A stretch of DNA of 64,000 nucleotides from an uncultured Bdellovibrionales bacterium (lineage in GTDB: Bacteria; Patescibacteriota; Minisyncoccia; Moranbacterales; UBA9337), in contig CAZSCV010000001.1 in the NCBI GenBank assembly GCA_964605525.1, positions 18,424-82,423 on the forward strand. The letters run 5' to 3'. Under the pieces are notes generated by a model. The model was not told the origin of the DNA, ran no database searches, and was given only the letters and a program-made list of their open reading frames with translations. A program made the position numbers and the translations under genes. Of this stretch, positions 1 through 54,754 are shown one piece after another. Every line of letters starts with the position of its first letter. The first letter of the stretch is position 1.

Positions 1-890
1 GTAAAAAATAATCCGGGCATTGAATTTAGTTCAACTATCCAAGGTTTACTCTTTTCATCAAACATTAAGTCAATAGAAAAAATTCTAGGAGAAAATGTTT
101 CAAAGACCTCTTTAACATAACGAATTATCGGCTTCAATGACGCTGGAAGTTTTTCTTTCGGCACAATAGTCAATGACCCACCTTGAGAAAGATTAGCGAG
201 ATAGCTATCTTCCGCTGGTTCTCGCAAATAAGAATATATCAGTTTTTCATTCACAAAAATCAAACGCAAATCATGCATAGAAAAGCTGGTTTTTATTCCC
301 GGAACTCCGGATGAAGAATTGATAAAATCCTGAATAATATACTCCCTGTCAATTTTTATTTTATCAACATTTTTTTTATCTACAATATAAATATTTTTTC
401 CACCACTTTCTGAAATCGGTTTAAGTACAAATTTTTGCGATTTTATTTTTGGAAGAATTTTTTCTAATTTTTTATGATTATTAACAATCCAGCTTTTCTT
501 GCTCCATTTGTCAAAAATCATGCTGGTTATCAGCTTATCATCCAATATCCTAGTAAAATTAAGATTATTAACAATTGAATAATGTTCCAAAATTAATTCT
601 TTTTTATGATAAGCTTCAGTTTCTGCGCCAGTTTTATCATAAATTAAGTCGGGTTTTATATTTTTCATTAATTTCCAAACATTTTTATCCGCATTATATG
701 TCCAAGCATATTTAAAAAAATTTTTCTTAAAATCATACCAAACATAAGAAGCTCGATACATTTGAATATTTTCTTTTGCACAAAGACTATAAAAATATTC
801 ATAACAACACTGATGATCCTTATTTGCAAATGGTCTTTTTTTGTTTAATGGAGTTTTCCCAAAAAGAATTAGGACTTTATTCATACAATC
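1..890 (-). CDS. ATP-grasp family ligase, truncated at window edge (C-terminal part outside window)
   Basis: Not in ORF track because it runs off the window. Minus-strand ATG at 890-888 translates to MNKVLILFGKTPLNKKRPF...FVLKPISESGGKNIYIV...SKPWIVELNSMPGLFFT. G-rich loop and ELNxxPG motif are typical of RimK/YheCD-like ATP-grasp enzymes. Confidence 0.5.
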
Positions 891-896
891 TCAATT

Positions 897-2339
897 TTAT
901 TTATTGACATCAATTAAAAATTTCTTCAAATCTCTCTTTCCTACAATCATTCTAAATTTTAAATCATCCCTTTTGACAATATTTGCACTAGAATAAATCC
1001 ATAGCCCGTTCATAAAAAAAGATAATTTTACATTCGGCCTAATGGAAACTCCATGAGAAGAATACACAATATTGATATTATCCAAGTCTGGCTTTTGAGA
1101 CAGATATTTTTCTCGCAATTCTTTTTCTATTTTTACAGATTCTTCTCTGGTAAAGTTTTGTGGCAATTCTATTTTTTCGAAAAAATCTACGACATCATTA
1201 AATCCCAACTCTCTTGCCAGCTCAACGTCAATTGAAGTGGAATAAGCGCCCGTGTCGATTTTGGCTTCAACTTCAATTTCTTTGCCATTTTTTCCAATGA
1301 GTTTTACTTTTTCCACGGTGCCGATCACTCTTCGCCCGGAAATTTCTTCCAATTCCTCTTCAATCTCCCCTCCAAACAAATCCATTCCCACACGCACCCC
1401 ACGCTTGATCGTTTTTATTTTGAGCCCTTCCACTCTTTCCAGTCTTCCGCGCAATCCCGCCAAATTCGCAATTTGAATGGAAAGTCCGGCGCGCGCATTG
1501 ATTTCCACAAAAACTGGTCCTTTTTCCTTATCAATCGCCACATCCGCTCCCAAAAATCCAAGTCCGGAAATTTCTTGCGCTTTCACTGCTAATTCCAAAA
1601 TATCATTCCAATAGGGAATTCTGATTCCGGAGAGTAAAAGTCTAGTTCCTGGAACATATTCCACGATTTTTGATTTTCCCTGAACCGCGCTAGTTGTCAC
1701 TCCGGTTGCCAGATCAATTCCCAGTCCGATTCCTCCCTGCTGAAGATTGGCTTTACCTCCTGATTCTTTTGTAGGAAGTCGGAGCATTGCCATTACCGGA
1801 ACTTTATTGAAAACAATTACACGAATATCGGGGATACCCTTGTAAGCGTATGTTTTGAATAATTTCAATAATCTTAATCTCTCCTCGAAAAAAGCAATAT
1901 CGCCCTCCCCTGAAATAGAAAAATTTCCATCCAAAATATTTCGAATATGGTTCTTGATATCTTCGACGGTAATAATTGATCCGTCCGCTTTTACCCAAGC
2001 GTCATTTCGTCCTTTTTTTCTTCCATAAACCACCAAAATTCCTTCTCCTCCCAAGCCTCGATTGGGTTTGAGGGCAAAACCGGATGGCAATTTATCCCAA
2101 TCAAAATTATCCAATTCATTATGCGAAGAAATTTTCGCCAACAAATCAGGCACAGGTATTCCGCCTTTTTTCAAGACTTTCTTGCTTAAAATTTTATCAT
2201 CCGCCAAACGGACAGCCCTCTTTCGATTATTAGGACGAATATATTTAAGATTTCTGGAATTCATCCCTAAAATCTTGTGACTATTTTTGAAAAATTTAAA
2301 CATGCTGTATGGTACATGAAACATGGAGCATTTTAACAA
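897..2339 (-). CDS. ATP-grasp peptide ligase (alpha-L-glutamate-ligase-like) fused to a C-terminal retropepsin-like aspartic peptidase domain
   Basis: 480-aa ORF. N-terminal two thirds has ATP-grasp signatures (LKPNRGLGGEGILVV, FVEINARAGLSIQIANL). C-terminal region has KIDTGAYSTSIDVELARELG with a D-T-G-A aspartic-protease motif, as in RimK-associated retropepsin domains. True start may be the internal M at 2264. Confidence 0.55.
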   Translation of the reverse strand: MLKCSMFHVPYSMFKFFKNSHKILGMNSRNLKYIRPNNRKRAVRLADDKILSKKVLKKGGIPVPDLLAKISSHNELDNFDWDKLPSGFALKPNRGLGGEGILVVYGRKKGRNDAWVKADGSIITVEDIKNHIRNILDGNFSISGEGDIAFFEERLRLLKLFKTYAYKGIPDIRVIVFNKVPVMAMLRLPTKESGGKANLQQGGIGLGIDLATGVTTSAVQGKSKIVEYVPGTRLLLSGIRIPYWNDILELAVKAQEISGLGFLGADVAIDKEKGPVFVEINARAGLSIQIANLAGLRGRLERVEGLKIKTIKRGVRVGMDLFGGEIEEELEEISGRRVIGTVEKVKLIGKNGKEIEVEAKIDTGAYSTSIDVELARELGFNDVVDFFEKIELPQNFTREESVKIEKELREKYLSQKPDLDNINIVYSSHGVSIRPNVKLSFFMNGLWIYSSANIVKRDDLKFRMIVGKRDLKKFLIDVNK

Positions 2340-2380
2340 TTTATGTCATATGTTCTATGTTATGCGCTATATGATCAAAT

Positions 2381-3049
2381 TTACATTTCTTTGAAAATTT
2401 CTCGAAATCGATAATATTCATTAAATCGCAATCCGGTCCATTTACCAAGGAAAAAGTTAATTGGAATCGTCAAAAGAACCACCCACGGATGATAAATAAT
2501 CATATTAATGGTTGTATGCAAACCGACCAAATAAAAACAAACTAGAGAAATTATCAGGGTTTCCACTGCCAAAAGCATAGCCGTTCGATTTCCTTTTTCA
2601 ATTTGCGCCGCCACAAATTTTTCCACAATCGCAATCATAATCAAAAGTGGAAAAATGGAAACGGAAGCTAGCCCCGTTCTTTGCAATGACCCTCCAAAGA
2701 CCAAAATTGCCAAAATTGAAAATGAAACAAGCGTAAGGGTTATCGCTACGCGAGGAAGATACAACAAGCGCAATTTCTTAAGCAAATAGCGCGCGATCAT
2801 TCCGGCAAAAATAACACTTACAAAAATTATCGTTCCGTATTTAACTCCGGAAAATCCATTATTATTATTGATTCTCATCGCCAAAAAAGCCAATGTAATA
2901 ATCATTGGAGTGTAAATTCCAAAAGCCTTTATTCCAAAAACCTGGCGAAAAAAAGCAATCAGAGTGGCGATTATTGGAAAAGTAAGAATCAAAATGACTG
3001 TTTCCAGTGGAACTCCCTGATGAACGAAGTAGTTTATTATCGGGTGCAT
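2381..3049 (-). CDS. polytopic membrane protein (about 6-7 TM), candidate partner of the ATP-grasp ligases
   Basis: 222-aa ORF, strongly hydrophobic throughout (IIATLIAFF, IITLAFLAM, VITLTLVSFSILAILVFGG, LLIMIAIV, IISLVCFYLVGL). Co-directional with the ATP-grasp genes, 41-nt gap. Confidence 0.5.
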   Translation of the reverse strand: MHPIINYFVHQGVPLETVILILTFPIIATLIAFFRQVFGIKAFGIYTPMIITLAFLAMRINNNNGFSGVKYGTIIFVSVIFAGMIARYLLKKLRLLYLPRVAITLTLVSFSILAILVFGGSLQRTGLASVSIFPLLIMIAIVEKFVAAQIEKGNRTAMLLAVETLIISLVCFYLVGLHTTINMIIYHPWVVLLTIPINFFLGKWTGLRFNEYYRFREIFKEM

Positions 3050-3066
3050 ATTTCTTTAATTTTTAA

Positions 3067-3585
3067 TTATAAATTATTCATTTTTCGGCTGTTCAAATGG
3101 CAAAGCGCAATAGCAATCGCATCGGCAGTATCGTCAGGCTTGGGGATCTCTTTGAGTTTCAAGATGTTTTTTACCATAATTTGAACTTGTTTTTTTTCCG
3201 CCCGACCGTATCCAGTGAGCGCCTGTTTCACTTGAAGAGGAGTATACTCAAAAACTTTTACACCCATTCTTTCCAGCGCCAGCAATATTCCTCCCCGCGA
3301 TTGACTGACCTTTATCACAGTTTTCACATTCTTGAAAAAAAACAAATCTTCTACTGCTCCCTCACTTGGTGTGTATTTTTTAATAATCTCCTCGATATCA
3401 TCCGACACTTCCTTGAGCCTCTCTGCAGTACTCCGACTTGGAGAAGTGGAAATGTGTCCATAAGCAATTGGAATCACTTTTCCTTTTTCTTCCTCCAATA
3501 TCGCCCATCCGGTGGTAGCTGTTCCAGGATCTACTCCTAAAACTCGCAAGGTTTTGGAAAAATTTTTAATTTTATAAATTGTCAT
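3067..3585 (-). CDS. ruvC: crossover junction endodeoxyribonuclease RuvC
   Basis: LGVDPGTATTGWAILEE catalytic N-terminus and overall RuvC length. Start chosen at internal M (MTIYKIK), overlapping the yebC stop by 14 nt. ORF-track start 3612 is the alternative. Confidence 0.8.
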   Translation of the reverse strand: MTIYKIKNFSKTLRVLGVDPGTATTGWAILEEEKGKVIPIAYGHISTSPSRSTAERLKEVSDDIEEIIKKYTPSEGAVEDLFFFKNVKTVIKVSQSRGGILLALERMGVKVFEYTPLQVKQALTGYGRAEKKQVQIMVKNILKLKEIPKPDDTADAIAIALCHLNSRKMNNL

Positions 3586-4288
3586 AAACCTCTTGAACAT
3601 CATCATTATCATCCAACTGTTCTAGTATTTTTTCATAATCCATTCTTGCATTTTCATCCAATTCAACTTTTTGCAAAGCGGCATAAACCAATTCGGCATT
3701 TTCCACAGAAATTCCGGATTTTTCCAGATTCTCTTTAACCGTTTTCAACTCGGTAGCTTTAGTATAAATTGTCAGTGTTTCGTCCCAATAAATCGTATCT
3801 TCCGCTCCAGCCTCAATCGCCACCAGTTCCATCTCATCCAAATTGCCGGAATTAACTGAAATATTAATATTTCCTACTAATTTAAAAGAATGCATCACTC
3901 CACCGGCGCTAGCCATCTTTCCTCCGCCCTTTATGATAATATTTTTTATCTCTCCTAATGTTCGATTTTTATTATCTGTTGCGGTTTTGATCAACATCAT
4001 CACACCACTTGAACCAAAGGCTTCGTAAATTATTTCTTCAATTTCCGCCCCGTCCTTAAGTTCTCCGGTTCCTTTTTTGATTGCCCGCTCAATATTGTCC
4101 TTTGGCATATTCACTCTTCGTGCCTGATCAATTGCAAATTTGAGCTTCATATTGGATTCGGGGTTTCCTCCGCTTTCTTTGGCGGCAATAGAGATCAAGC
4201 GACCCAACTTCGTAAAAGAACTGGCTCGCTTTGCATCTTGCGCTCCCTTGCGATGTTTTATTCCCGACCATTTATTATGTCCAGACAT
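3572..4288 (-). CDS. yebC: YebC/PmpR family DNA-binding transcriptional regulator
   Basis: MSGHNKWSGIKHRKGAQDAKRASSFTKLGRLISIAAKESGGNPESNMKLKFAIDQARRVNMPKDNIERAIKKGTGE is the YebC signature. Start at MSGHNKW (4288). Classical yebC-ruvC pair. Confidence 0.85.
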   Translation of the reverse strand: MSGHNKWSGIKHRKGAQDAKRASSFTKLGRLISIAAKESGGNPESNMKLKFAIDQARRVNMPKDNIERAIKKGTGELKDGAEIEEIIYEAFGSSGVMMLIKTATDNKNRTLGEIKNIIIKGGGKMASAGGVMHSFKLVGNINISVNSGNLDEMELVAIEAGAEDTIYWDETLTIYTKATELKTVKENLEKSGISVENAELVYAALQKVELDENARMDYEKILEQLDDNDDVQEVYDNL

Positions 4289-4385
4289 AGACTTTATAAA
4301 GCATAAACTACATAGCATCAACAAAATGTCTTCTGCTCTGCGTTTGAGCTGTATGTTTTACGTTTTCATCCTACCATCTTTATCT

Positions 4386-7399: not shown

Positions 7400-9394
7400 T
7401 TAAATGAATAATGAATTCAGAAAGGTGTTTATTTTTTGCAGCAAATGTTCAAGGAATTTTTTGGCGTAGTGTTCGGAAGGGATTGATTCGGAGGAAAAGA
7501 AATATTTTCCATTTTCTTGGCGAATGGAAAAATTTTGAATTTTGTCGATATTGAAATCTTCAATCGCATTTGAAAGTTTTCGGTACATCTCCGAACTAAT
7601 CTCAATTTCCACTGGTCTTTGGGTTATTTTTTCAACAAATAAACCGTCTTCATTTTCCTCTCCTGCTCCCTGCACCTCATTGTTCATTGCTCCCTGCTCG
7701 TTATTTCCCGCTTGCTGTTCATTATTCATTGTTAATTGCTCATTATTTTCCGATAATTGTTCCTTATTCATTGTTCCCTGTTCATTATCAACAATCCATT
7801 CCCATTTCTTTCCTTTTTCTTTTTGAAAAATGCTATTATCCTTAATTGATGCTTTTTCCTTATATTTTAAAGAATGGGCAATTTTTCCATCCGGATATCG
7901 CAATTCAACAAAGGCCTGCTTGTTTCCCAGGGAAAAATAACTGTCATCCCGCTTTATTTTTTTTACCTCTCCGGCTTTTATCCTGATAGAGTTGTATATC
8001 GGATGATTGACTAAGGTTTTTTCCGTCGCTCCCGTCGCCACACTCCAGCCTTTCAAATCAACAACTTTATCGGAATTATTTTTTACGCGAATCCACTCTC
8101 CCTCACTATCCAATCCTTCTGGATTGGGCATAATTTCCACAATTTTCACTTCCCGCCTGGGATATTTTTCCACTTCCACTTTGAAGTTTTTCATCACATC
8201 TTCACTTCCGTCGAAAACTTTCACGCTGGCAAGATAATTTCCTTCTTTTTCGTATTTGTGCCTGGTTTTTTCCAAATAACTTTTATGTCCATCCCCAAAA
8301 TCCCACGTTATTTTCAATTCATCTTTATCCTTATCTTTCGCCTCCACCTCAAAATCCGCGTAAATATTTTCATACACATCTTCATCAATTTTCAATTTTA
8401 TCTCCGGAAGATTGTTAAATTTATTTTCTTCTCCGGGGGTCAAAAATTTACTCTGCCGCCATTTTTTTCCATCAAAATTCCATGAAATGTTTTTCTTTGA
8501 TCCTAAATATTTCATCTTTGAAACTTCTTTTCCATTTGGATCGAAAAGATAAACAGATTCATCTCCGGAATTATTCAACGAAAATTTGAAAGATTTTTCA
8601 TCATCTTCTTTTTCTTTTTTATAAACAACAAAATAATCGCCAGCTTTTACGATTGAATCATTCGGGAAAACATATTTTCCCGTTTTTGACTCATCTTTTA
8701 ATATCCAACCAGAAAGATCCTCATTTTTCTTGGAAAAATTATACAATTCAATATATTCTGTTTTTCCTTTTTCCGGATTAGGAAAAATCTCGTTAATTTC
8801 AATCTCCGAAAAATATTTTTTTGGCTCAGATTTTTTCTCCCCCGGCGTTCCTCCAAGAGTCCAGCTTTTTTCCCATCTATTACCCTTTTCATCCCATTCA
8901 ATGCTATATCCTTTCTCACTATTTTCTGTGCTTTCATATAAAATTTCAGTCTCCCAATTTTTACAACCTTCAAAACTTATCTTTATCTCTCCATCTTTTT
9001 TTAGAGAAAAACTTGAATCTACGATTTTTCCCTCATATTTACATTTTTCCTTTCCTTTGCAAAAATTTTCTTCAAATTGTTTTTTATCACTAACTATAAC
9101 AACATATTCATTAGGATCTATTTCCAAATCATCATTGGATTTATGACAAACACCACTATTTTCAACTATTTTTAAATTTTTCTTTTCTACTATAATTTTC
9201 TTGTCAGAATTATTATAAATTTCTATCCATTCCCCTTTACTATCGCTTCCTTCCGGATCAAACATTATCTCCGTAATAATAATCCTGTCATCTTCGGCTT
9301 TTATTTCTTGCACGCATAAAAAACAAAAAGCGCTAAAAATAAAAATTAGCGCTCCTGTTTTTAAAAATACTTTTTTCTTTTTAGAAAAAATCAT
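7400..9394 (-). CDS. secreted protein with three lamin-tail (LTD) domains, a PKD-like domain and a low-complexity NEQ-repeat tail
   Basis: N-terminal signal/TM (LIFIFSAFCFLCVQEIKA). LTD signatures IIITEIMFDPEGSDSKGEWIEIYN, INEIFPNPEKGKTEYIELYN, KIVEIMPNPEGLDSEGEWIRVKN. PKD-like ITWDFGDGHKSYLEKTRHKYEKEGNY. C-terminal NNEQ(L/G)(T/A)MNNEQ repeats. Confidence 0.6.
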   Translation of the reverse strand: MIFSKKKKVFLKTGALIFIFSAFCFLCVQEIKAEDDRIIITEIMFDPEGSDSKGEWIEIYNNSDKKIIVEKKNLKIVENSGVCHKSNDDLEIDPNEYVVIVSDKKQFEENFCKGKEKCKYEGKIVDSSFSLKKDGEIKISFEGCKNWETEILYESTENSEKGYSIEWDEKGNRWEKSWTLGGTPGEKKSEPKKYFSEIEINEIFPNPEKGKTEYIELYNFSKKNEDLSGWILKDESKTGKYVFPNDSIVKAGDYFVVYKKEKEDDEKSFKFSLNNSGDESVYLFDPNGKEVSKMKYLGSKKNISWNFDGKKWRQSKFLTPGEENKFNNLPEIKLKIDEDVYENIYADFEVEAKDKDKDELKITWDFGDGHKSYLEKTRHKYEKEGNYLASVKVFDGSEDVMKNFKVEVEKYPRREVKIVEIMPNPEGLDSEGEWIRVKNNSDKVVDLKGWSVATGATEKTLVNHPIYNSIRIKAGEVKKIKRDDSYFSLGNKQAFVELRYPDGKIAHSLKYKEKASIKDNSIFQKEKGKKWEWIVDNEQGTMNKEQLSENNEQLTMNNEQQAGNNEQGAMNNEVQGAGEENEDGLFVEKITQRPVEIEISSEMYRKLSNAIEDFNIDKIQNFSIRQENGKYFFSSESIPSEHYAKKFLEHLLQKINTFLNSLFI

Positions 9395-9409: not shown

Positions 9410-9850
9410 TCAAACAATTTTTCTTTGCGGGGAAGATATTCCCAATTGCTCCTTAACGGCAAAAACTACCTGACTTGGCTTCGTGTTTGCCTTAATAAGA
9501 TATTTTTTTGCACCTAGCGACAATGCTGCATCTCTGTCTCCATTTTGATCGAGATTGGTCAAAACTATAATCGGAATCTTGCTATATTCGGCATTAGAAT
9601 GTATCTTTTCAAGCAAATCAAATCCATCCATTTTCGGCATAATGATATCCAGAGTTATCAAATCTATAAGATCAAAATTTTCTTTTATTTTTTTCAAAAC
9701 TTCCTTTCCATCAGAACAACGTATCACCTCAAATCCATTCGCAATGAAAGCTTTGGCATACATTTCCGAGAGATCACGATCATCTTCGGCAATTAAAATT
9801 GTATTTCTTTTACCTGCCATATTTTTCACAATCCTATATTGCTTGTCCAA
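9410..9850 (-). CDS. orphan response-regulator receiver domain protein (CheY-like, no output domain)
   Basis: NTILIAEDDRDLSEMYAKAFIANGFEVIRCSDGKEVL...LITLDIIMPKMDGFDLLEKI has the D-D...D...K receiver pattern. No histidine kinase in the window. Start may be M at 9820, avoiding overlap with the upstream giant gene. Confidence 0.7.
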   Translation of the reverse strand: MDKQYRIVKNMAGKRNTILIAEDDRDLSEMYAKAFIANGFEVIRCSDGKEVLKKIKENFDLIDLITLDIIMPKMDGFDLLEKIHSNAEYSKIPIIVLTNLDQNGDRDAALSLGAKKYLIKANTKPSQVVFAVKEQLGISSPQRKIV

Positions 9851-12800
9851 CTAAAGATGTTCTGGAAATTATTAGTAATAACTTGAATGATATTCTTTTT
9901 GTCTTTCGGGGTGAGCACTCCGCGATCTTGAGTAATTGAAACATTGCCCGTTTTGTCCTCGGCTTTGACGTTAAAATAATACGCAAGACCTTGTTCTAAC
10001 GTTGTGATAACAGCGGTATGTTTTAAGGTGTAATCCTCACTAGCAACAACTTCACGCTTATTTCCACCAATTCCCTCGCGATAAATAAACATAGTTTTGG
10101 ATGGTTCATCAGTATCCCAAGACAAAATAGTCTGCACTTTTCCCGCTTGCGACAGAGCAGAAGTTGTTCGCAAGTTTTCAATTACGGGAGGGTTTTCATC
10201 CTTGTTTGTAGTATACTTATCAATTTCTTTTTCAGTAGTATTTCCTTCCTTATCGCGAACTTTTACCGATAATTTATACATCACTCCCGATTCCAAATTT
10301 CCCACCTCCAAAGAATGTTCCGTCTTTTGTTCCGGAGATCCTTGAAAATGTTGATCTTCCTCTTTTTCAACATTTGTCAAAGTGACAAAAGCATCGGCTT
10401 CAATATTGGTTTTAAATGAAACTTTAATATTATGTTCGTCAATGGAATCAACCTTAAAATCTTGCACTTCAGGAGGAGCGGGCGTGGAAAACGTATATTC
10501 GGATGAAGAATAAATATTCGAAGATGAGTCTTCTCCTTTGATGCGGAAATAATATTTCGTCCCGGCATTCAAACTGGTCAGATTTATTGCATGCGCCTTG
10601 GATCGGTCGCTATCCTTGGTGATTTCTTTGTCCATTTCTCTACTTTTTCCATATTCCAATTGCGATGTAGCATTGGCGGATGTTTCCCAGGAAACAGTAG
10701 CACTGTCATAATTCACATCAATCACTTCAACATTGAAAATATCAGAAGCTGCCGAAGTTGTGAATGTGTCCGCATCCGACTGTCCGGTATTTCCCAACGA
10801 GTCAACGCTTTTTACATAAAAAGTATATTTTGTGTTAGGCGTCAAATCATTAATTGTAATTTCATGATTAGTAGTAAGAGTGGTTGTATCTCCTTGATCC
10901 TTATAATTTCCTCCTTCCGGTTTATATACAACAACAGAAGTTGCTTCCTTGTCCGTTTTCCAAGAAACCGTAACACTATTAGACAGTGTTTTGGAAACTG
11001 TGGCACTGGCGGAAGAAATATCCGGCGCGGTATACGCCCCCGTAATAAACCCTGCCAAATCCGTATCTTCCGTCGCTGCTCCCAATGTTTTAAAAGTGTA
11101 ATCTCCCGATTCATCTGAATTAGCGGAAGCGTCTTTGGAAATAACTTGATAATGATATGTCGTTCCGGAATCCAAATCTTCCAATAATACATTATGATTA
11201 GTAATCATATCAGTATTTTCAGATGTGGTACTGGAATAGTTCTCGGTTTTTCCATATCTCACCTTTGAAGTTGACACTTCGTTTGTCGTCCAATTGATCA
11301 GTGCTTGGTTTTTTCCGATCAATACTGCCTGAACATTGGAAATGTCCGGCACTTGACTGTCAACTCCCTCGCCCAAAGTTGAACATTCTTCAATATCCGA
11401 CGCACTCACTCCACCCTCGACATTTTCGGAAAGAACCTGATAATAATATTTCACCTGCGGCAATAAGCTTCCAATAGTAACACTGTGCTCTTCTTTTTTC
11501 TCATCCTCTCCTTTTTTGAAATAATCCGCCAAATCATCATCCTCGGAATAAATCACAAAAGCATCTGCATCTTCATTCGTGTCCCATGAAATTGTCAACT
11601 GATTGTTCCCGGAAGTACAATCGGGACCCGAGGAGATATCTGGACCGGATACCGTTTCAAAAGTGTAGTAAGCGCCTCCGTTGTCATACAAGTTGTAATT
11701 TCCGTTTTCATCTTGCAATTTTATTTTGAAATAATAAGTTCTTCCTTGACTCAAATTTTTCAAATTTATCGAATGGGTGGTCGTAAAAGATTTACTGGAA
11801 GACTTTTCTTCATAGTCATCGGAAGAAAAATCTTCCACACTGTCAGAATAATAAATCGAAACAATTGAATCACTATCTGAAACCACGGAAATTTCAGCAT
11901 TATCAGAAGAAGTATCCGAAACAGAATATGTGCTTAATCCTGGAGCAGATGAATCTATCAGTGATTCTGTTGTAAATTTTATCATTGAACTGTCCGCAGT
12001 GTAAAAATATATATCGTTATTAGCAGAATCAACTAATTTAATTCGGTAATAATAAACTTGATTAGATTGCAGATTTTCCAAATAAAATACATGAGTAATT
12101 GAAGCGGTGTCGTTATCCACATAATTATCACAAGTATCCACGTCGCTGATTTGATTTGCTTCATAGCAAAGTCTGGCGGTCGTCTGAGTATTTCCGGAGA
12201 AATAAATCACCGCCTCGGTTTCGCCGGTAATCAAAACGTTAGCACTGGTCGGATCATCAGGAGCAATCAAGTCCGGATGATCTTCTTGCTTTGCCAAAGT
12301 GGAAAAATTGAATTCGTCCGATTCGCTTTGATTTCCATTGATATCCCTAGCTTGAATTTTGTAAGTATATACGGTATTCCTGGAAAGATTATCCAAAACC
12401 ACCGCTCGCTCCATTGTATATGTTTGGCTCCAGCTCGGATCATTATATGAATCACTGGATTTTTTGTACAGGACCCGACTTACCGCTTTCTCGTCAGTTA
12501 TCCATTTAATCACCCCCTTAGTGTCGGTTTTTATTATCGGAGCGCCAAAAACTGCATCGTTCGGAATAATCGTTGGAGCTGCCTGATCATTGTCAGTTCG
12601 AAAATTAAAATAGTGAATTACTCCACGCTCGGGATTTTTGTCCGTGTCATTATCTGCTTCGACATAAAAATAATATTTAGTATTAACAGAAAGTCCGACA
12701 ATATCCGCTTGGCAAATTAAAGTATCGCCGTCGCATTCCGCCGACTGATTGTCCGACGAAGAGAAATCCGGAACATCGCCACTTGTTTGATTAGTATAAT

Positions 12801-15800
12801 AAACTTTTGCCACAGTCGGATTTTCACTCACTGCCCATCTGACAACTGCCTGAGTGTTATATATCTCCGGAATTGTCACGCTACTAATTTGAGCGCCAGA
12901 ACTGGTCAATTCGGTCACGTCATCCGTATCACTATTACCATTAAGATTAGATGATTTGGCGCGAAAATTATATTCAGTGCCGACATCCAATCCGGTGATT
13001 ACTACTTCATGCTCTTCTCCCATTGTCGCCACCGTCACTGATGAACTAGTGCCCTCATTGATAGCGTTAGTGGAATAATATACCTTTGAATCCGAAACTA
13101 CACTACTAGTATTCCAAGTCAATTTCATCCAAGTCGTTCCTTTGTCCGCCACCACCAAGTTTGTGATGCTGGGAGTGGAGGTGATTCCCGAACCTCCTGA
13201 TCCGTCGGGAATAGTGGAATCAATTGAACTGTAGGTTGAAACATTGGCAATATCGTCTTCGCAAGTCAAGCGATAATAATATCGATGATTTTCATCAACG
13301 GCTGTATCCACATAGTAGTTAATCAGATTGTCGATATTTTCATCATAAACTACCTCCGTCCAATCAGAAACCACTCCGGAATCATTAGTCGTACTAACTG
13401 TGCTTCCGCGATACAAATGATACTGAGCAAAGTCATTATTTAAATCGGTATTGACTTCCCAAGAAACAAAAATTCTGTTTTCAATCGGAGTAATATTGTC
13501 ATTGCTGGCATCTTGCGCTTTCACTCCACTCGGAACACCCGGAGAATCAGTGTCATATACAATTGCATCCGAAGATGTAATTGAAATATTTCCATTGGCA
13601 TCACGAAATTGCGCGTAAACAGTTTTACTTCCATCGCCAGCGGTTCCTCCATAAGTTGCATCGAGAATATTCCACTGGGTTTTTGAAACGGCATAGTCTT
13701 CCCAGCTTTTCCAGTCGCTGCCGTTATTTGAAAATCTCATTTGATATCCACTTTGATTATCCTCGGTTGTACTGATAATCAAATCTTCGGTATCGTCATT
13801 GGTTTTGTTCGCGTTTGCCGTTGATGAATCAACCGAGAAAGAATTAACTGTCGGATTTTTCGTGTCAATAGGAAATCCCGCCACATTCGATTCGCCGGTT
13901 CCGACTTGATTGGCGGCATTTCCGTCGTTTGCTGAAATCATTATTCTGGCGGATTCATAATACACATTTGGCAAATCGGTTTTAATTGTCCATGAAACAG
14001 TTTTTCCGCTTCCATTGTCAATTCCCGCGCCGACATCTCCAGTAACAGAAACGCCCTTAAACCAAATAGCTTCTCCGCTAAGATGATTTACTGTACGAGT
14101 ACTGTTGGCACCTCGAGTAATACCAATCAAATCATTGCCAGACTTTCCGGTATATTCGATCTGCTCTTTTTCAATTTGAATCGTTCCGCTACTTGGTAAA
14201 CTTGCCGTATTGGAAACAGTAATTGCCGTCGAATCACTCGCGATAAAATCTTCCTCAAGAGTTGCTCCCAAATCCGCCAAAACAGAAATAGTTTGCGCAG
14301 ATGTGTCTGAATCTGCAACATCATAGGAAACGTTCACGATTCCGGAGGCGTCCTGAGAGGCAATCACCGATCCAACAAGAGGAGCAACATTAACCACATA
14401 TTGCAATTCCGCGCGCGTAACTGTTGCCGATTGACCTCCATTATCAGTTTCTAGAATTATTTTGTATTGCATCCATTGATCATCCGTTCCGTCCCCAATA
14501 TTTATTTCAGCGGGAATAAAACAATCAACTGTTCTGGTTCCCGCATTAACAGTTGACGAACAATTTACCGCATCACTACTTGAAAAATAACTCGATCCCG
14601 TTCCATCCGGTCCAACAAACCCAGTAACAGATCCGGTTTCCGGCGCATCATTTCCAGCATTGGTTGGAGCTGTTTGCGCTTGAAATTTCACGTCAGTCCC
14701 AGATGGAAGATTCTCTTCTTCTTCCCAGATAATATTAGTGAAAGCATTTGTTTCGTCAGAAGCATTATACCAAGAACCCACAAGTGATTGTGTTACGAGT
14801 AATCCGGAAAAATTGCTAATTCTTTCAAATTGAACGGATATATCATTTAATGTCGGGGTTTGGGTTTGATCGGTTGAAGATGTAAGTGTTGCCTGATATT
14901 GAACATATCGCTGCCCATCCGTCACGCAACTGTTTGCAGAAATATCCGCTCCGCTAGAAACCGCTTCGCAACTTGCCCAATCAGTTGCGCCACTCATATC
15001 CAAGTTATCGGAAGTCCTCGCTTTCACGGAAACGGATGAACCGACTGGCGTTGTGTTGGCGTTATATGCCAAATTTCCAAAAGAAATATTTCCTAAGGTG
15101 TCATAAATTGAAGAAGTGTAATTTCCTGTCGTTTGATAATTACTTACATCCACATCGACATTTATTTGGTCCAGCGTCGGGGTTGCGGTTCCCGGACCGG
15201 TAAGTGTCGCCTGGTACCAAAGATACTGGTCGCTTGAACTGGCGCAAGTGGAATTCAAAGCGATAGGAGAAGTGCTTCCATCGCAAGTGTCCGCCGCGAA
15301 ACTCGGCGGAGTGACGGCGCTACTTCCCGATTTGACCTTCACGGTAATATCCCCGCCATTTGATGTTTCGTTCCAAGCGAACGAATTCCACGTCCTGCCA
15401 CCGGTATTTCCGGAAGAAACATACGAAGTATAAGTTCCAGAAAGGTTATAAGAAACATCCGAACATATACAAAGAATCGGCTGAGAAAAAGTACATCCTC
15501 TACTAGACCGCTGTATCCAATCGCTAGTCTGATATCCTATATATCCAGACATACCATTAGATGTCGGGCAATGATAAGTAAGATTATATGACCCACCGTA
15601 ATTTGAATTTGACCACCAATATCCAGAAAAATAATCCAATCCAGTGTTAATATATGACGGAATAGTGCCATCGAGCATATCCGCCCAAGTATTTGTAAAA
15701 AGAGTAGAAGTACCACTAGACTTACTATATTTATAAATAGGACTATTGCTATCAAATCGACCCGTGACTCCATCGGAATCAACATCGATCGTCTGCATAT

Positions 15801-16653
15801 CCTGTATTTCATCGTTTACATCAGTGCTTATAAACCCTTTAACGGATCCGGTATCGCAATTTGGCCTGTTAACACTAGAAGAACACATAGAATCAACGGA
15901 ACTTCGAAGAATATTAGTTCCCAGCATACTGCCTCCTAAATACAAAGTTGATTTTCCGGCAGCAGTTGATAATTTAATACCCGCACCATTACCTACTACT
16001 CCATTTTGCCTCGTATTGGAAAAAGTTCCATACCCCCATCCCCCCTGCTGTCCACTACTGGAAACGGTTGATGTGTCATCGGTTTGCGTGACAGAATAAT
16101 TCGTTACAAATGTATCCAATTGAACAAATCCTTCTGCTCCGCTTCCGCTCATCGCTGTCTGACTAACCGTTCCTGCGTTAAAATCCGTATCCGTCGTCTG
16201 CGTCCAGGATACCGCCTCTGAAGATAAAGTTACTCCATCGCCATCAGCAGTAATATCTTCATCCTTGGAAGCATATTTATCCCAATTGGAAACCGGGGTT
16301 GTTTGATGCGCGACATAATCATTCGGAAAGGCTCCGCCCGTCCAACTGCTCTGCTGCCAATTAAAAGTTGCCGCCTGCGATTTGAACACCGGCAAAATCA
16401 GTTGAATAATTAAAGTAGAAATCACAATAACCGAAATAGCCGAAGACAGGCTTAGTGTCACCCGGCGCACTTTTTTCTGGTATTTTTTTAGTGCAATATA
16501 TGAATCGAAATAAATATCGCACCTCACCTCCCCATCCGGATTCTGATGGCACTGCTGAATGCGAAAGTGGTTATCTTTGGCGCTACGAAAAATCAAATGA
16601 AAATAATCTTTGATTTTTATTTTAATTTTTTCTGTTTTTTGTTTTGAATCCAT
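9826..16653 (-). CDS. giant cell-surface protein with many fibronectin type III-like repeats (2275 aa)
   Basis: Single uninterrupted ORF. N-terminal anchor (VTLSLSSAISVIVISTLIIQLILPVF). Ser/Thr-rich central part. At least 10 FN3-like modules ending in Y-x-[FY]-x-[VI]-x-[AS]-x-D-x-x-G-N (YNFRAKSSNLNGN, YKIQARDINGN, YYYRIKLVDSANN, YYFKIKLQDENGN, YHYQVISKDASAN, YTFYVKSVDSLGN, YYFRIKGEDSSSN, YKLSVKVRDKEGN, YYFNVKAEDKTGN). Confidence 0.7.
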   Translation of the reverse strand: MDSKQKTEKIKIKIKDYFHLIFRSAKDNHFRIQQCHQNPDGEVRCDIYFDSYIALKKYQKKVRRVTLSLSSAISVIVISTLIIQLILPVFKSQAATFNWQQSSWTGGAFPNDYVAHQTTPVSNWDKYASKDEDITADGDGVTLSSEAVSWTQTTDTDFNAGTVSQTAMSGSGAEGFVQLDTFVTNYSVTQTDDTSTVSSSGQQGGWGYGTFSNTRQNGVVGNGAGIKLSTAAGKSTLYLGGSMLGTNILRSSVDSMCSSSVNRPNCDTGSVKGFISTDVNDEIQDMQTIDVDSDGVTGRFDSNSPIYKYSKSSGTSTLFTNTWADMLDGTIPSYINTGLDYFSGYWWSNSNYGGSYNLTYHCPTSNGMSGYIGYQTSDWIQRSSRGCTFSQPILCICSDVSYNLSGTYTSYVSSGNTGGRTWNSFAWNETSNGGDITVKVKSGSSAVTPPSFAADTCDGSTSPIALNSTCASSSDQYLWYQATLTGPGTATPTLDQINVDVDVSNYQTTGNYTSSIYDTLGNISFGNLAYNANTTPVGSSVSVKARTSDNLDMSGATDWASCEAVSSGADISANSCVTDGQRYVQYQATLTSSTDQTQTPTLNDISVQFERISNFSGLLVTQSLVGSWYNASDETNAFTNIIWEEEENLPSGTDVKFQAQTAPTNAGNDAPETGSVTGFVGPDGTGSSYFSSSDAVNCSSTVNAGTRTVDCFIPAEINIGDGTDDQWMQYKIILETDNGGQSATVTRAELQYVVNVAPLVGSVIASQDASGIVNVSYDVADSDTSAQTISVLADLGATLEEDFIASDSTAITVSNTASLPSSGTIQIEKEQIEYTGKSGNDLIGITRGANSTRTVNHLSGEAIWFKGVSVTGDVGAGIDNGSGKTVSWTIKTDLPNVYYESARIMISANDGNAANQVGTGESNVAGFPIDTKNPTVNSFSVDSSTANANKTNDDTEDLIISTTEDNQSGYQMRFSNNGSDWKSWEDYAVSKTQWNILDATYGGTAGDGSKTVYAQFRDANGNISITSSDAIVYDTDSPGVPSGVKAQDASNDNITPIENRIFVSWEVNTDLNNDFAQYHLYRGSTVSTTNDSGVVSDWTEVVYDENIDNLINYYVDTAVDENHRYYYRLTCEDDIANVSTYSSIDSTIPDGSGGSGITSTPSITNLVVADKGTTWMKLTWNTSSVVSDSKVYYSTNAINEGTSSSVTVATMGEEHEVVITGLDVGTEYNFRAKSSNLNGNSDTDDVTELTSSGAQISSVTIPEIYNTQAVVRWAVSENPTVAKVYYTNQTSGDVPDFSSSDNQSAECDGDTLICQADIVGLSVNTKYYFYVEADNDTDKNPERGVIHYFNFRTDNDQAAPTIIPNDAVFGAPIIKTDTKGVIKWITDEKAVSRVLYKKSSDSYNDPSWSQTYTMERAVVLDNLSRNTVYTYKIQARDINGNQSESDEFNFSTLAKQEDHPDLIAPDDPTSANVLITGETEAVIYFSGNTQTTARLCYEANQISDVDTCDNYVDNDTASITHVFYLENLQSNQVYYYRIKLVDSANNDIYFYTADSSMIKFTTESLIDSSAPGLSTYSVSDTSSDNAEISVVSDSDSIVSIYYSDSVEDFSSDDYEEKSSSKSFTTTHSINLKNLSQGRTYYFKIKLQDENGNYNLYDNGGAYYTFETVSGPDISSGPDCTSGNNQLTISWDTNEDADAFVIYSEDDDLADYFKKGEDEKKEEHSVTIGSLLPQVKYYYQVLSENVEGGVSASDIEECSTLGEGVDSQVPDISNVQAVLIGKNQALINWTTNEVSTSKVRYGKTENYSSTTSENTDMITNHNVLLEDLDSGTTYHYQVISKDASANSDESGDYTFKTLGAATEDTDLAGFITGAYTAPDISSASATVSKTLSNSVTVSWKTDKEATSVVVYKPEGGNYKDQGDTTTLTTNHEITINDLTPNTKYTFYVKSVDSLGNTGQSDADTFTTSAASDIFNVEVIDVNYDSATVSWETSANATSQLEYGKSREMDKEITKDSDRSKAHAINLTSLNAGTKYYFRIKGEDSSSNIYSSSEYTFSTPAPPEVQDFKVDSIDEHNIKVSFKTNIEADAFVTLTNVEKEEDQHFQGSPEQKTEHSLEVGNLESGVMYKLSVKVRDKEGNTTEKEIDKYTTNKDENPPVIENLRTTSALSQAGKVQTILSWDTDEPSKTMFIYREGIGGNKREVVASEDYTLKHTAVITTLEQGLAYYFNVKAEDKTGNVSITQDRGVLTPKDKKNIIQVITNNFQNIFSWTSNIGL

Positions 16654-54497: not shown

Positions 54498-54570
54498 GGG
54501 CCATTAGCTCAATTGGTAGAGCGCTTCCATGGCATGGAAGAGGCAGCCGGTTCGAATCCGGCATGGTCCA
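54498..54570 (+). tRNA. tRNA-Ala (anticodon GGC)
   Basis: Hand-folded cloverleaf GGGCCAT/ATGGTCC acceptor with G3:U70 Ala identity pair. D-arm GCTC/GAGC. Anticodon stem CTTCC/GGAAG, loop ATGGCAT. T-arm GCCGG TTCGAAT CCGGC. Discriminator A. No encoded CCA. Confidence 0.85.
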
Positions 54571-54679
54571 CTACGCAAAATTTATTATTAACAATAAATT
54601 TTTGTGTAGTGGCCACGTTTGTGGTTTTTTGTTTATTTAAAACTGCGATTGTGATATTGTAGTAGTGTATAAACTTATT

Positions 54680-54754
54680 GTCCTTGTAGTTCAATGGATA
54701 GAACGAGTCCCTCCTAAGGACTAAATGCAGGTTCGATTCCTGCCAAGGACACCA
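54680..54754 (+). tRNA. tRNA-Arg (anticodon CCT)
   Basis: Acceptor GTCCTTG/CAAGGAC. Anticodon stem AGTCC/GGACT, loop CTCCTAA. T-arm GCAGG TTCGATT CCTGC. Discriminator A plus encoded CCA. Confidence 0.85.

Follow-up and report, generated by a model that had tools for sequence, protein, structure and literature searches.

What does an ATP-grasp ligase do when it is fused to an aspartic peptidase and encoded beside a polytopic membrane protein in an uncultured member of the Patescibacteria? The question is posed by the left-hand end of a 64,000-nucleotide stretch of contig CAZSCV010000001.1 (assembly GCA_964605525.1, positions 18,424 to 82,423), referred to here as the window. Its minus strand carries three co-directional open reading frames (ORFs), encoding a seven-transmembrane (7TM) protein, a ligase-peptidase fusion protein and a second ATP-grasp ligase (Table 1). 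An earlier note, made from the letters alone, had described the trio as a TIGR02291-like ligase with a C-terminal DTGA aspartic protease domain, a 7TM partner and a second ligase on the same strand, and profile matches bear this out (PF14397, TIGR02291 and PF05618 for the fusion gene at 897-2339). We find that the cluster is a cytoplasmic, fused patescibacterial variant of the RloABC system, and that it resembles the RimB-RimK hybrid. As a kind of system it is not new, nor is the locus unique: public data contain thousands of homologues, annotated as alpha-L-glutamate ligase-like or sugar-transfer associated ATP-grasp proteins. The window locus is an ordinary member of this large family, whose domain-level annotation is already public, and the result is in that sense modest. 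A literature search found no paper describing the fused variant of Patescibacteria.

The systems to which the cluster must be compared have been characterized recently. RloA enzymes are secreted, dimeric retropepsins with a signal peptide and a conserved disulfide Cys pair, which cut poly-α-glutamate runs of at least eight Glu in vitro; their residues K46, R114 and R137 coordinate poly-Glu, and the R114A and R137A substitutions abolish both activity and complementation (PMC12239564). In low-osmolarity medium, the absence of all three RloA paralogues proves toxic, and deletion of rloB or rloC suppresses this toxicity (PMC12239564), which indicates that RloB and RloC make what RloA removes. In Pseudomonas, the rlo genes affect osmotic tolerance, biofilm formation, cell shape and β-lactam sensitivity (Lormand et al. 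2025, PMC12239564), and RloB was reported to be 96% proteobacterial (PMC12239564). RimB cleaves poly-α-glutamate runs of at least six Glu (Little et al. 2025, PMC11957791); it also stimulates RimK and is needed for efficient poly-α-glutamate synthesis, and a natural RimB-RimK hybrid with the protease at its N-terminus (RimBK) is an active protease (PMC11957791). The earlier note had spoken of a predicted system. Given the work on RloA, RloB and RloC (PMC12239564) and the active RimBK proteases (PMC11957791), such systems are no longer purely predicted.

The fusion protein and its membrane partner

The N-terminal part of the fusion protein matches the Pfam ATPgrasp_ST model far above its cut-off (PF14397; 232.8 bits, E=5.8e-69, cut-off 31.4) and slightly misses that of TIGR02291 'alpha-L-glutamate ligase-like' (292.6 bits, E=2.9e-87, cut-off 314.2), so it is a family member and no equivalog of the proteobacterial protein. 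On the RimK-family model it scores 57 bits (cut-off 143). The domain is 42.8% identical to RloC of the canonical Legionella rloA-rloB-rloC operon and ends at the same ...LF motif; the fusion protein thus comprises a complete RloC, a linker and a retropepsin. Residues K79, D254, E267 and N269, which from general ATP-grasp knowledge we take to be the ATP-Lys and Mg ligands, are invariant among 27 diverse and 56 close homologues, and with these residues intact the ligase looks active. A full-length AlphaFold model (predicted local distance difference test, pLDDT, 80) is nearest to ArgX/LysX, RimK and cyanophycin synthetase, all of which add amino acids to peptide or protein carboxylates. After RimK, the ligase domain has its best relatives, in structure as in sequence, in cyanophycin synthetase and LysX/ArgX. 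The window protein differs from these in lacking a second (Mur-like) domain and a gene for a LysW-like carrier, and in its partners. Ddl and members of the RimK family align with it from their residues ~94 and ~69 onwards, so the fused ligase lacks the N-terminal pre-ATP-grasp domain, which in RimK and Ddl helps acceptor binding.

The linker that follows is disordered in the model (residues 314-327, pLDDT <50). An LFGGEIEEExEEISG pattern is kept here across many classes of the candidate phyla radiation (CPR), the window version being LFGG-EIEEELEEISG. The linker might serve a Glu-specific protease as a tethered pseudo-substrate. Use of the linker as a self-cleavage site was considered and is unlikely, as its longest Glu run is three, against at least six for RimB and at least eight for RloA.

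The C-terminal ~140 residues match PF05618 (Zn_protease/RimB-like; 28.5 bits, E=1.6e-6, cut-off 27). A profile built from 27 diverse family members matches the RloA crystal structures 9g58 (E=5e-9) and 9g59 (E=7e-9) over the whole domain, and Lpg0085 (2pma) at E=1e-4. Moreover, the PDB matches to an AlphaFold model of residues 325-468 (pLDDT 88) are all retropepsins, namely HIV-1 protease, Ddi1, SFV protease, Lpg0085, RloA, RloA2 and Rickettsia APRc. The window's clade carries a ~45-residue helical insertion following the DTG strand. KIDTGA is encoded at 1262..1245, and within the family alignment D350, G352, A353, R422, R445 and G455 are invariant and K348 and T351 near-invariant; the hydrophobic-hydrophobic-Gly motif, IVGKRD, is also conserved. 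The catalytic Asp, whose conservation the earlier note had singled out for checking, is invariant in the window's clade, with DTGA present in 120 of 120 close homologues. K348, R422 and R445 align with the poly-Glu-coordinating K46, R114 and R137 of RloA (9g58). Judged by these residues, the protease looks active and acid-specific. It has neither signal peptide nor Cys, and as an internal C-terminal fusion it is cytoplasmic, resembling RimB in location and being no orthologue of RloA.

The 7TM protein matches Pfam 7TM_transglut (PF14402; 89.6 bits, E=3e-25, cut-off 25). Hydropathy shows seven hydrophobic segments, and the positive-inside rule orients them N-out/C-in, with 16 residues outside. 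Its match to the RloB model NF052267 (508 positions) is limited to positions 305-507 (72 bits, against a cut-off of 900), which is the C-terminal 7TM part alone; the inactive transglutaminase domain of RloB is therefore absent. A PDB sequence search with this protein returned no solved structure. Across 77 CPR homologues, conservation is centred on the loops predicted to be cytoplasmic and, past the seventh transmembrane segment (TM7), on a G[KR]WxGLRxxEYxRF tail, where G202, G206, L207, R208, E211, R214 and F215 are 88-100% conserved. Legionella and Aeromonas RloB share this tail motif, there as G-x-Y-x-G-Y-[RK]-L-x-E-L-x-RF. From this conservation pattern we infer that the 7TM protein has its functional surface on the cytoplasmic side, and that the ligase probably docks there.

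Longer homologues of the 7TM protein, several of them of 500-556 aa, occur in other CPR genomes. The two long ones tested (543 and 513 aa; L035 6386-8014 and L056 3264-4802) have an N-terminal PKD domain, and two of middle length (304 and 327 aa) showed no recognised extra domain and no Pfam match. Set beside the inactive transglutaminase domain of proteobacterial RloB, the PKD domain makes the extracellular module appear interchangeable.

The cluster can now be set against its two closest counterparts. With RloABC of Pseudomonas aeruginosa and other Gammaproteobacteria it shares an RloC-type ATP-grasp ligase, an RloB-type 7TM protein with its tail motif, and an RloA/RimB-type retropepsin that keeps DTGA and the poly-Glu-binding Lys and Arg residues. 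In contrast to RloABC, the protease follows the ligase C-terminally in one polypeptide and is cytoplasmic, without signal peptide or Cys pair; the 7TM protein lacks the inactive transglutaminase domain; the gene order is B-(C::A) and not A-B-C; RimK-like ligases are added downstream; and the host belongs to Patescibacteria. With RimK-RimB and RimBK it has in common the cytoplasmic pairing or fusion of an α-L-glutamate-ligase-type ATP-grasp enzyme with a retropepsin-like poly-Glu endopeptidase, and a RimK-family ligase lies two genes downstream of the fusion. However, whereas RimBK has RimB at its N-terminus, the window protein has the ligase N-terminal and the protease C-terminal; its ligase is of the ATPgrasp_ST/RloC subfamily without the RimK N-domain, and its 7TM partner is obligatory. 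By its reversed fusion order, RloC-type ligase, transglutaminase-free 7TM protein, extra ligases and host, the variant is distinct from both RloABC and RimBK.

Linkage and peptidase exchange across Patescibacteria

To catalogue related loci, species-representative genomes were scanned, giving at least 597 relatives of which the best 80 were taken as loci; a metagenome scan contributed 80 further loci. Gene linkage was counted with our own hidden Markov models on six-frame ORFs. The best 80 of the at least 597 relatives were all labelled as, or behaved as, Patescibacteria, and spanned Moran-, Pacei-, Dojka-, Kerfeld-, Woese-, Sacchari-, Peregrini-, Gracili-, Nomura-, Shapiro- and Kaiserbacteria; the closest named homologues belong to Candidatus Moranbacteria. 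Among 138 evaluable loci, 136 carry the 7TM gene next to the fusion gene, directly upstream and on the same strand; they comprise 112 of 113 loci of the two-domain type and 24 of 25 in which a MATCAP metallopeptidase domain is fused as well. This adjacency argues for a real system and against a chance neighbourhood, and for this pair the earlier note's proviso, that the genes might prove unlinked in related genomes, is dispelled. The fusion gene is usually followed by one to three extra RimK-like ligases. An extra ATP-grasp gene stands directly downstream in 79 of 110 two-domain loci, as against 3 of 25 MATCAP-fused loci.

The architectures themselves were surveyed among representatives of clusters at 50% identity, of which 2167 were relatives at E<=1e-3 and 440 at E<=1e-30; length classes cover the best 150 of the 2167. 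Proteins of 400-530 aa account for 44 of the 150, and those scanned consist of ligase and retropepsin (D[TS]GA in 23). A further 44 measure 740-830 aa; here those scanned consist of ligase, retropepsin-like domain and MATCAP/QEGLA metallopeptidase, with D[TS]GA in 3 and HExx[TS]H in 37. Another 49, of at most 345 aa, are bare RloC-length proteins or fragments. TIGR02421 'QEGLA' matches the MATCAP domain of the three-domain proteins, and in a 30-sequence alignment of these H638, E639, H643 and the QEGLA residues are invariant. DTGA is absent from all 26 MATCAP-fused proteins in the loci. Some relatives thus pair a degenerate retropepsin with an intact HExxxH MATCAP carboxypeptidase. Two other proteins, P0122 (688 aa) and P0157 (926 aa), are candidate fusions of further kinds; in no fixed order, the pair apparently represents ligase-retropepsin-YdjC (carbohydrate deacetylase-like) and ligase-retropepsin-second ATP-grasp architectures.

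The exchange of peptidase coincides with a change in the membrane partner. Where the ligase is MATCAP-fused (7TM genes of L056, L067, L070, L076, L079, L087-L118 and L155), the 7TM protein ends in -EE or -EEE in 20 of 26 loci, compared with 2 of 116 other loci (Fisher p=4e-17, uncorrected for phylogeny), and in one of these two exceptions the fusion is truncated by the contig end. The MATCAP-fused proteins are 30-48% identical to the reference, and the residues preceding EE vary among their 7TM partners. The occurrence of -EE tails alongside the MATCAP fusion suggests that in this sister branch the 7TM protein's own C-terminus is the substrate of both ligase and carboxypeptidase. Two flavours of the system can thus be told apart: one has an apparently active endopeptidase, usually with extra ligases, and includes the window; the other has an apparently active carboxypeptidase and an -EE-tailed 7TM partner. 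This swapping of peptidases argues for one constant need, namely that the ligase be accompanied by a peptidase acting on acidic tails.

A possible parallel lies in the eukaryotic TTL/TTLL-MATCAP cycle and the bacterial TIGR02421 'QEGLA' proteins, where an ATP-grasp ligase and a peptidase likewise meet on acidic C-terminal tails. In the sister branch, the same ligase is fused to MATCAP/QEGLA and the 7TM partners end in -EE, which may be the analogous arrangement. The window, however, has no MATCAP homologue and its 7TM tail is not acidic, and the analogy covers the sister branch only. A literature search on bacterial MATCAP with ATP-grasp found no paper.

What the cluster may do

The reading towards which we lean, with slightly more confidence than doubt, is that the cluster encodes a membrane-docked ligase of acidic peptides or poly-α-Glu with a retropepsin built in, which would edit or release the product and might also activate the ligase; RimK-type ligases would assist. 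It builds on the domain identities, the intact catalytic and poly-Glu-binding residues, the positive-inside topology and the near-universal linkage described above. All soluble parts would lie on the cytoplasmic face of the membrane, where the 7TM protein (N-out/C-in) would provide a docking platform through its cytoplasmic loops and GLRxxExxRF tail. The RloC-type ligase, without RimK's acceptor-binding N-domain, would dock on this platform and use ATP to form α-peptide bonds with L-glutamate or another acidic residue. The product would be an acidic oligo- or polypeptide, either free or on a membrane-presented acceptor. The fused retropepsin would dimerize into a poly-Glu endopeptidase that trims or releases this product, and might stimulate the ligase as RimB does RimK; the downstream ATP-grasps, first the divergent one and then the RimK-family one, would extend or diversify it.

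Several points weigh against this reading. The Glu specificity of an RloC-type ligase is argued by analogy. For the protease domain, the single-sequence Pfam score is marginal (28.5 vs 27), the NCBIfam equivalog models RloA1, RloA2 and RloA3 score far under their cut-offs, and the correspondence with RloA K46, R114 and R137 relies on an alignment together with an inferred 20-residue signal-peptide offset. The Pseudomonas protease acts outside the cytoplasm, which the fused one cannot do, so the two must differ in where they act or in their substrate. DTGA is missing from 15 of the 116 loci of the two-domain type. In genomes as compact and co-directional as those of Patescibacteria, tight gene spacing alone says little. 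Finally, the conserved positions of the 7TM protein do not resemble a polar translocation path, which leaves an export role unsupported.

Since the Rlo system was described only in 2025, the variants of Patescibacteria are natural experiments on its substrate and on the roles of RloB and RloC. They imply that fusion to the ligase does not keep the protease from working on the cytoplasmic side, that the 7TM protein, whose conserved part is its cytoplasmic face, can do without the extracellular domain or exchange it, and that a MATCAP carboxypeptidase can take over as the peptidase, an exchange that coincides with an -EE tail on the 7TM partner. They offer concrete, testable substrate candidates, and a two-gene minimal system should be easier to reconstitute than the Pseudomonas operon.

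A further proposal, which we regard as rather unlikely, makes the 7TM protein the acceptor or the presenter of an acceptor. Across Patescibacteria, the ligase would attach an acidic tag to a C-terminus on the inner side of the membrane and the fused peptidase would erase it, the eraser being an active retropepsin in the window and a MATCAP carboxypeptidase where the 7TM protein is -EE-tailed. If true, this would constitute a prokaryotic counterpart, possibly a forerunner, of the tubulin TTL/MATCAP code, and would show where to seek the physiological substrate of the Rlo system.

More doubtful still is a cycle confined to the tail of the 7TM protein itself, in which the ligase adds one or more C-terminal residues and the fused peptidase removes them, as a switch like TTL/MATCAP or RpsF/RimK/RimB. 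An -EE end is the type of acceptor used by RimK (RpsF) and TTL (tubulin), and the -EE or -EEE ends of the sister branch (20 of 26 loci vs 2 of 116), on otherwise variable residues, fit such a cycle, as does a fused ligase without an acceptor-binding N-domain of its own. The correlation is, however, uncorrected for phylogeny. Moreover, the window's 7TM protein ends ...REIFKEM, the extreme C-terminus at DTGA-type loci is variable and mostly basic, and the homologues of the retropepsin require six to eight contiguous Glu.

Glutamylation and de-glutamylation of RpsF (S6) would assign the writing to the RimK-family ligase beyond the window's edge and the erasing to the fused retropepsin, leaving the 7TM gene as an unrelated neighbour. 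We consider this improbable. Although that ligase reaches the TIGR00768 cut-off (143.6 vs 143.4), the protease is, like RimB, cytoplasmic and without a periplasmic Cys pair, and RimBK fusions exist, here the protease is joined to an RloC-type and not a RimK-type ligase. The 7TM gene is linked in 136 of 138 loci, an extra ligase in just 72% of two-domain loci, and the window holds no rpsF gene.

Just as improbable is a cell-envelope peptide ligase system, in which the ATP-grasps build or modify a peptidoglycan stem, cross-bridge or surface polymer with the adjacent class A penicillin-binding protein (PBP). Behind the cluster stands a class A PBP gene, both here and at 22 of the 80 genome loci; rlo mutants of Pseudomonas show cell-shape and β-lactam phenotypes; and Pfam labels ATPgrasp_ST 'sugar-transfer associated'. 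Yet the PBP adjacency is a minority pattern that travels with yebC-ruvC synteny, suggesting conserved gene order and not function; no Mur, Fem or glycosyltransferase gene is among the cluster's called genes; and the protease retains its poly-Glu-binding residues.

Maturation of a ribosomally synthesized and post-translationally modified peptide (RiPP) of graspetide-like kind, the nearest equivalent of the peptide maturation proposed by the earlier note, can be set aside as very unlikely: the graspetide ligase PsnB is one among many ATP-grasp fold matches of the AlphaFold model, and a protease with a membrane protein could serve leader removal and export, but the best relatives by sequence and by fold are RimK, LysX/ArgX and cyanophycin synthetase, the third ligase scores 25.5 bits on the RiPP ATP-grasp maturase model (cut-off 350), and the small substrate-peptide gene that the note had advised looking for to the left of the window did not turn up, no precursor-peptide ORF being found in the cluster's four intergenic gaps (56, 12, 16 and 89 nt) on the identical and near-identical public contigs.

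Locus layout and neighbouring genes

Table 1. Features of the cluster, in window coordinates
Feature	Position	Strand	Basis
7TM membrane protein, 222 aa	2381..3049	-	Pfam 7TM_transglut, hydropathy
Conserved cytoplasmic tail motif GKWTGLRFNEYYRF of the 7TM protein, just past TM7	2405..2446	-	77 homologues
Fusion gene, maximal ORF, TTG start, 480 aa	897..2339	-	stop at 899-897
RloC-type ATP-grasp ligase domain, aa 1-312	1368..2303	-	ATPgrasp_ST, TIGR02291
Acidic linker EIEEELEEISGRR after conserved LFGG, aa 313-327	1323..1367	-	predicted disorder, homologue pattern
RimB/RloA-type retropepsin-like aspartic peptidase domain, aa 328-468	900..1322	-	PF05618, profile, model
DTGA catalytic motif, D350 (468-aa numbering) = D362 (480-aa ORF)	1245..1256	-	sequence
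Second ATP-grasp ligase, 5' part, 294/319 codons	1..884	-	divergent RimK/GshB/MptN-like
Sigma-70-like hexamers TGAACA-18-TATAAT in the ruvC end	3066..3095	-	weak; consensus match only

Besides the TTG of the maximal ORF, the fusion gene offers an ATG at 2324 (475 aa, as in public gene calls) and an ATG at 2303 (468 aa). Compared with the N-termini of homologues, the ATG at 2303 is probably the start, and its numbering is used here. The sigma-70-like hexamers lie 17-46 nt upstream of the 7TM start (8124-8153 of the contig L001 introduced below, mapped to the window) and are the sole promoter-like site, a weak one; terminator-like sites occur at chance level. None of the four proteins tested matched a PADLOC anti-phage defence model.

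Two public contigs extend the cluster beyond position 1, where the window edge cuts through it: an ENA contig (L003) that is 100% identical to the window, and NCBI GCA_007376775.1 VMGV01000008.1 (L001), which is 99.98% identical. The second ATP-grasp gene, rightly said in the earlier note to run off the window, starts at 884 and leaves after 294 codons; the part inside the window has weak matches to RimK, GshB, MptN and TTL-type profiles, and the full length on L003 is 319 aa. The third ligase follows just past the edge (L003 5760-6638, 292 aa) and belongs marginally to the RimK family (TIGR00768). Behind it stand genes for a class A PBP, a bPH_2 protein and RuvB. On L001, a 62-nt deletion between two ATGTTTGG repeats (window ~682-743, minus strand, vs L001 10476-10482) frameshifts the second ATP-grasp gene, called there as pieces of 61 and 247 aa; the gene is intact in the window and on the ENA contig. 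The deletion is either a strain variant or an assembly collapse.

The order yebC-ruvC-[7TM-ligase cluster]-class A PBP...ruvB recurs in Moranbacteria and several other CPR classes. Here the yebC-ruvC side occupies 3067-4324 of the window (minus strand), and the PBP...ruvB side corresponds to L001 12217-16741, left of the window. The cluster appears to be embedded in an otherwise conserved housekeeping block. Functional links to PBP, ruvC and yebC were considered and set aside, the co-occurrence (PBP in 22 and ruvC in 32 of the first 80 loci) being read as lineage synteny.

Farther along the minus strand, two ORFs encode probable surface proteins. The first (7400-9394), an LTD/PKD protein of 664 aa, has a Gln/Asn/Glu-rich repeat (NNEQ...) close to the C-terminus; the second (9826-16653) spans 2275 aa, and its homologue on the near-identical contig L002 has fn3 and Pur_ac_phosph_N-like domains in repeated copies. 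Between the two is a small gene for a response regulator. On the plus strand, tRNA-Ala(GGC) and tRNA-Arg(CCT) genes adjoin each other at 54498-54754.

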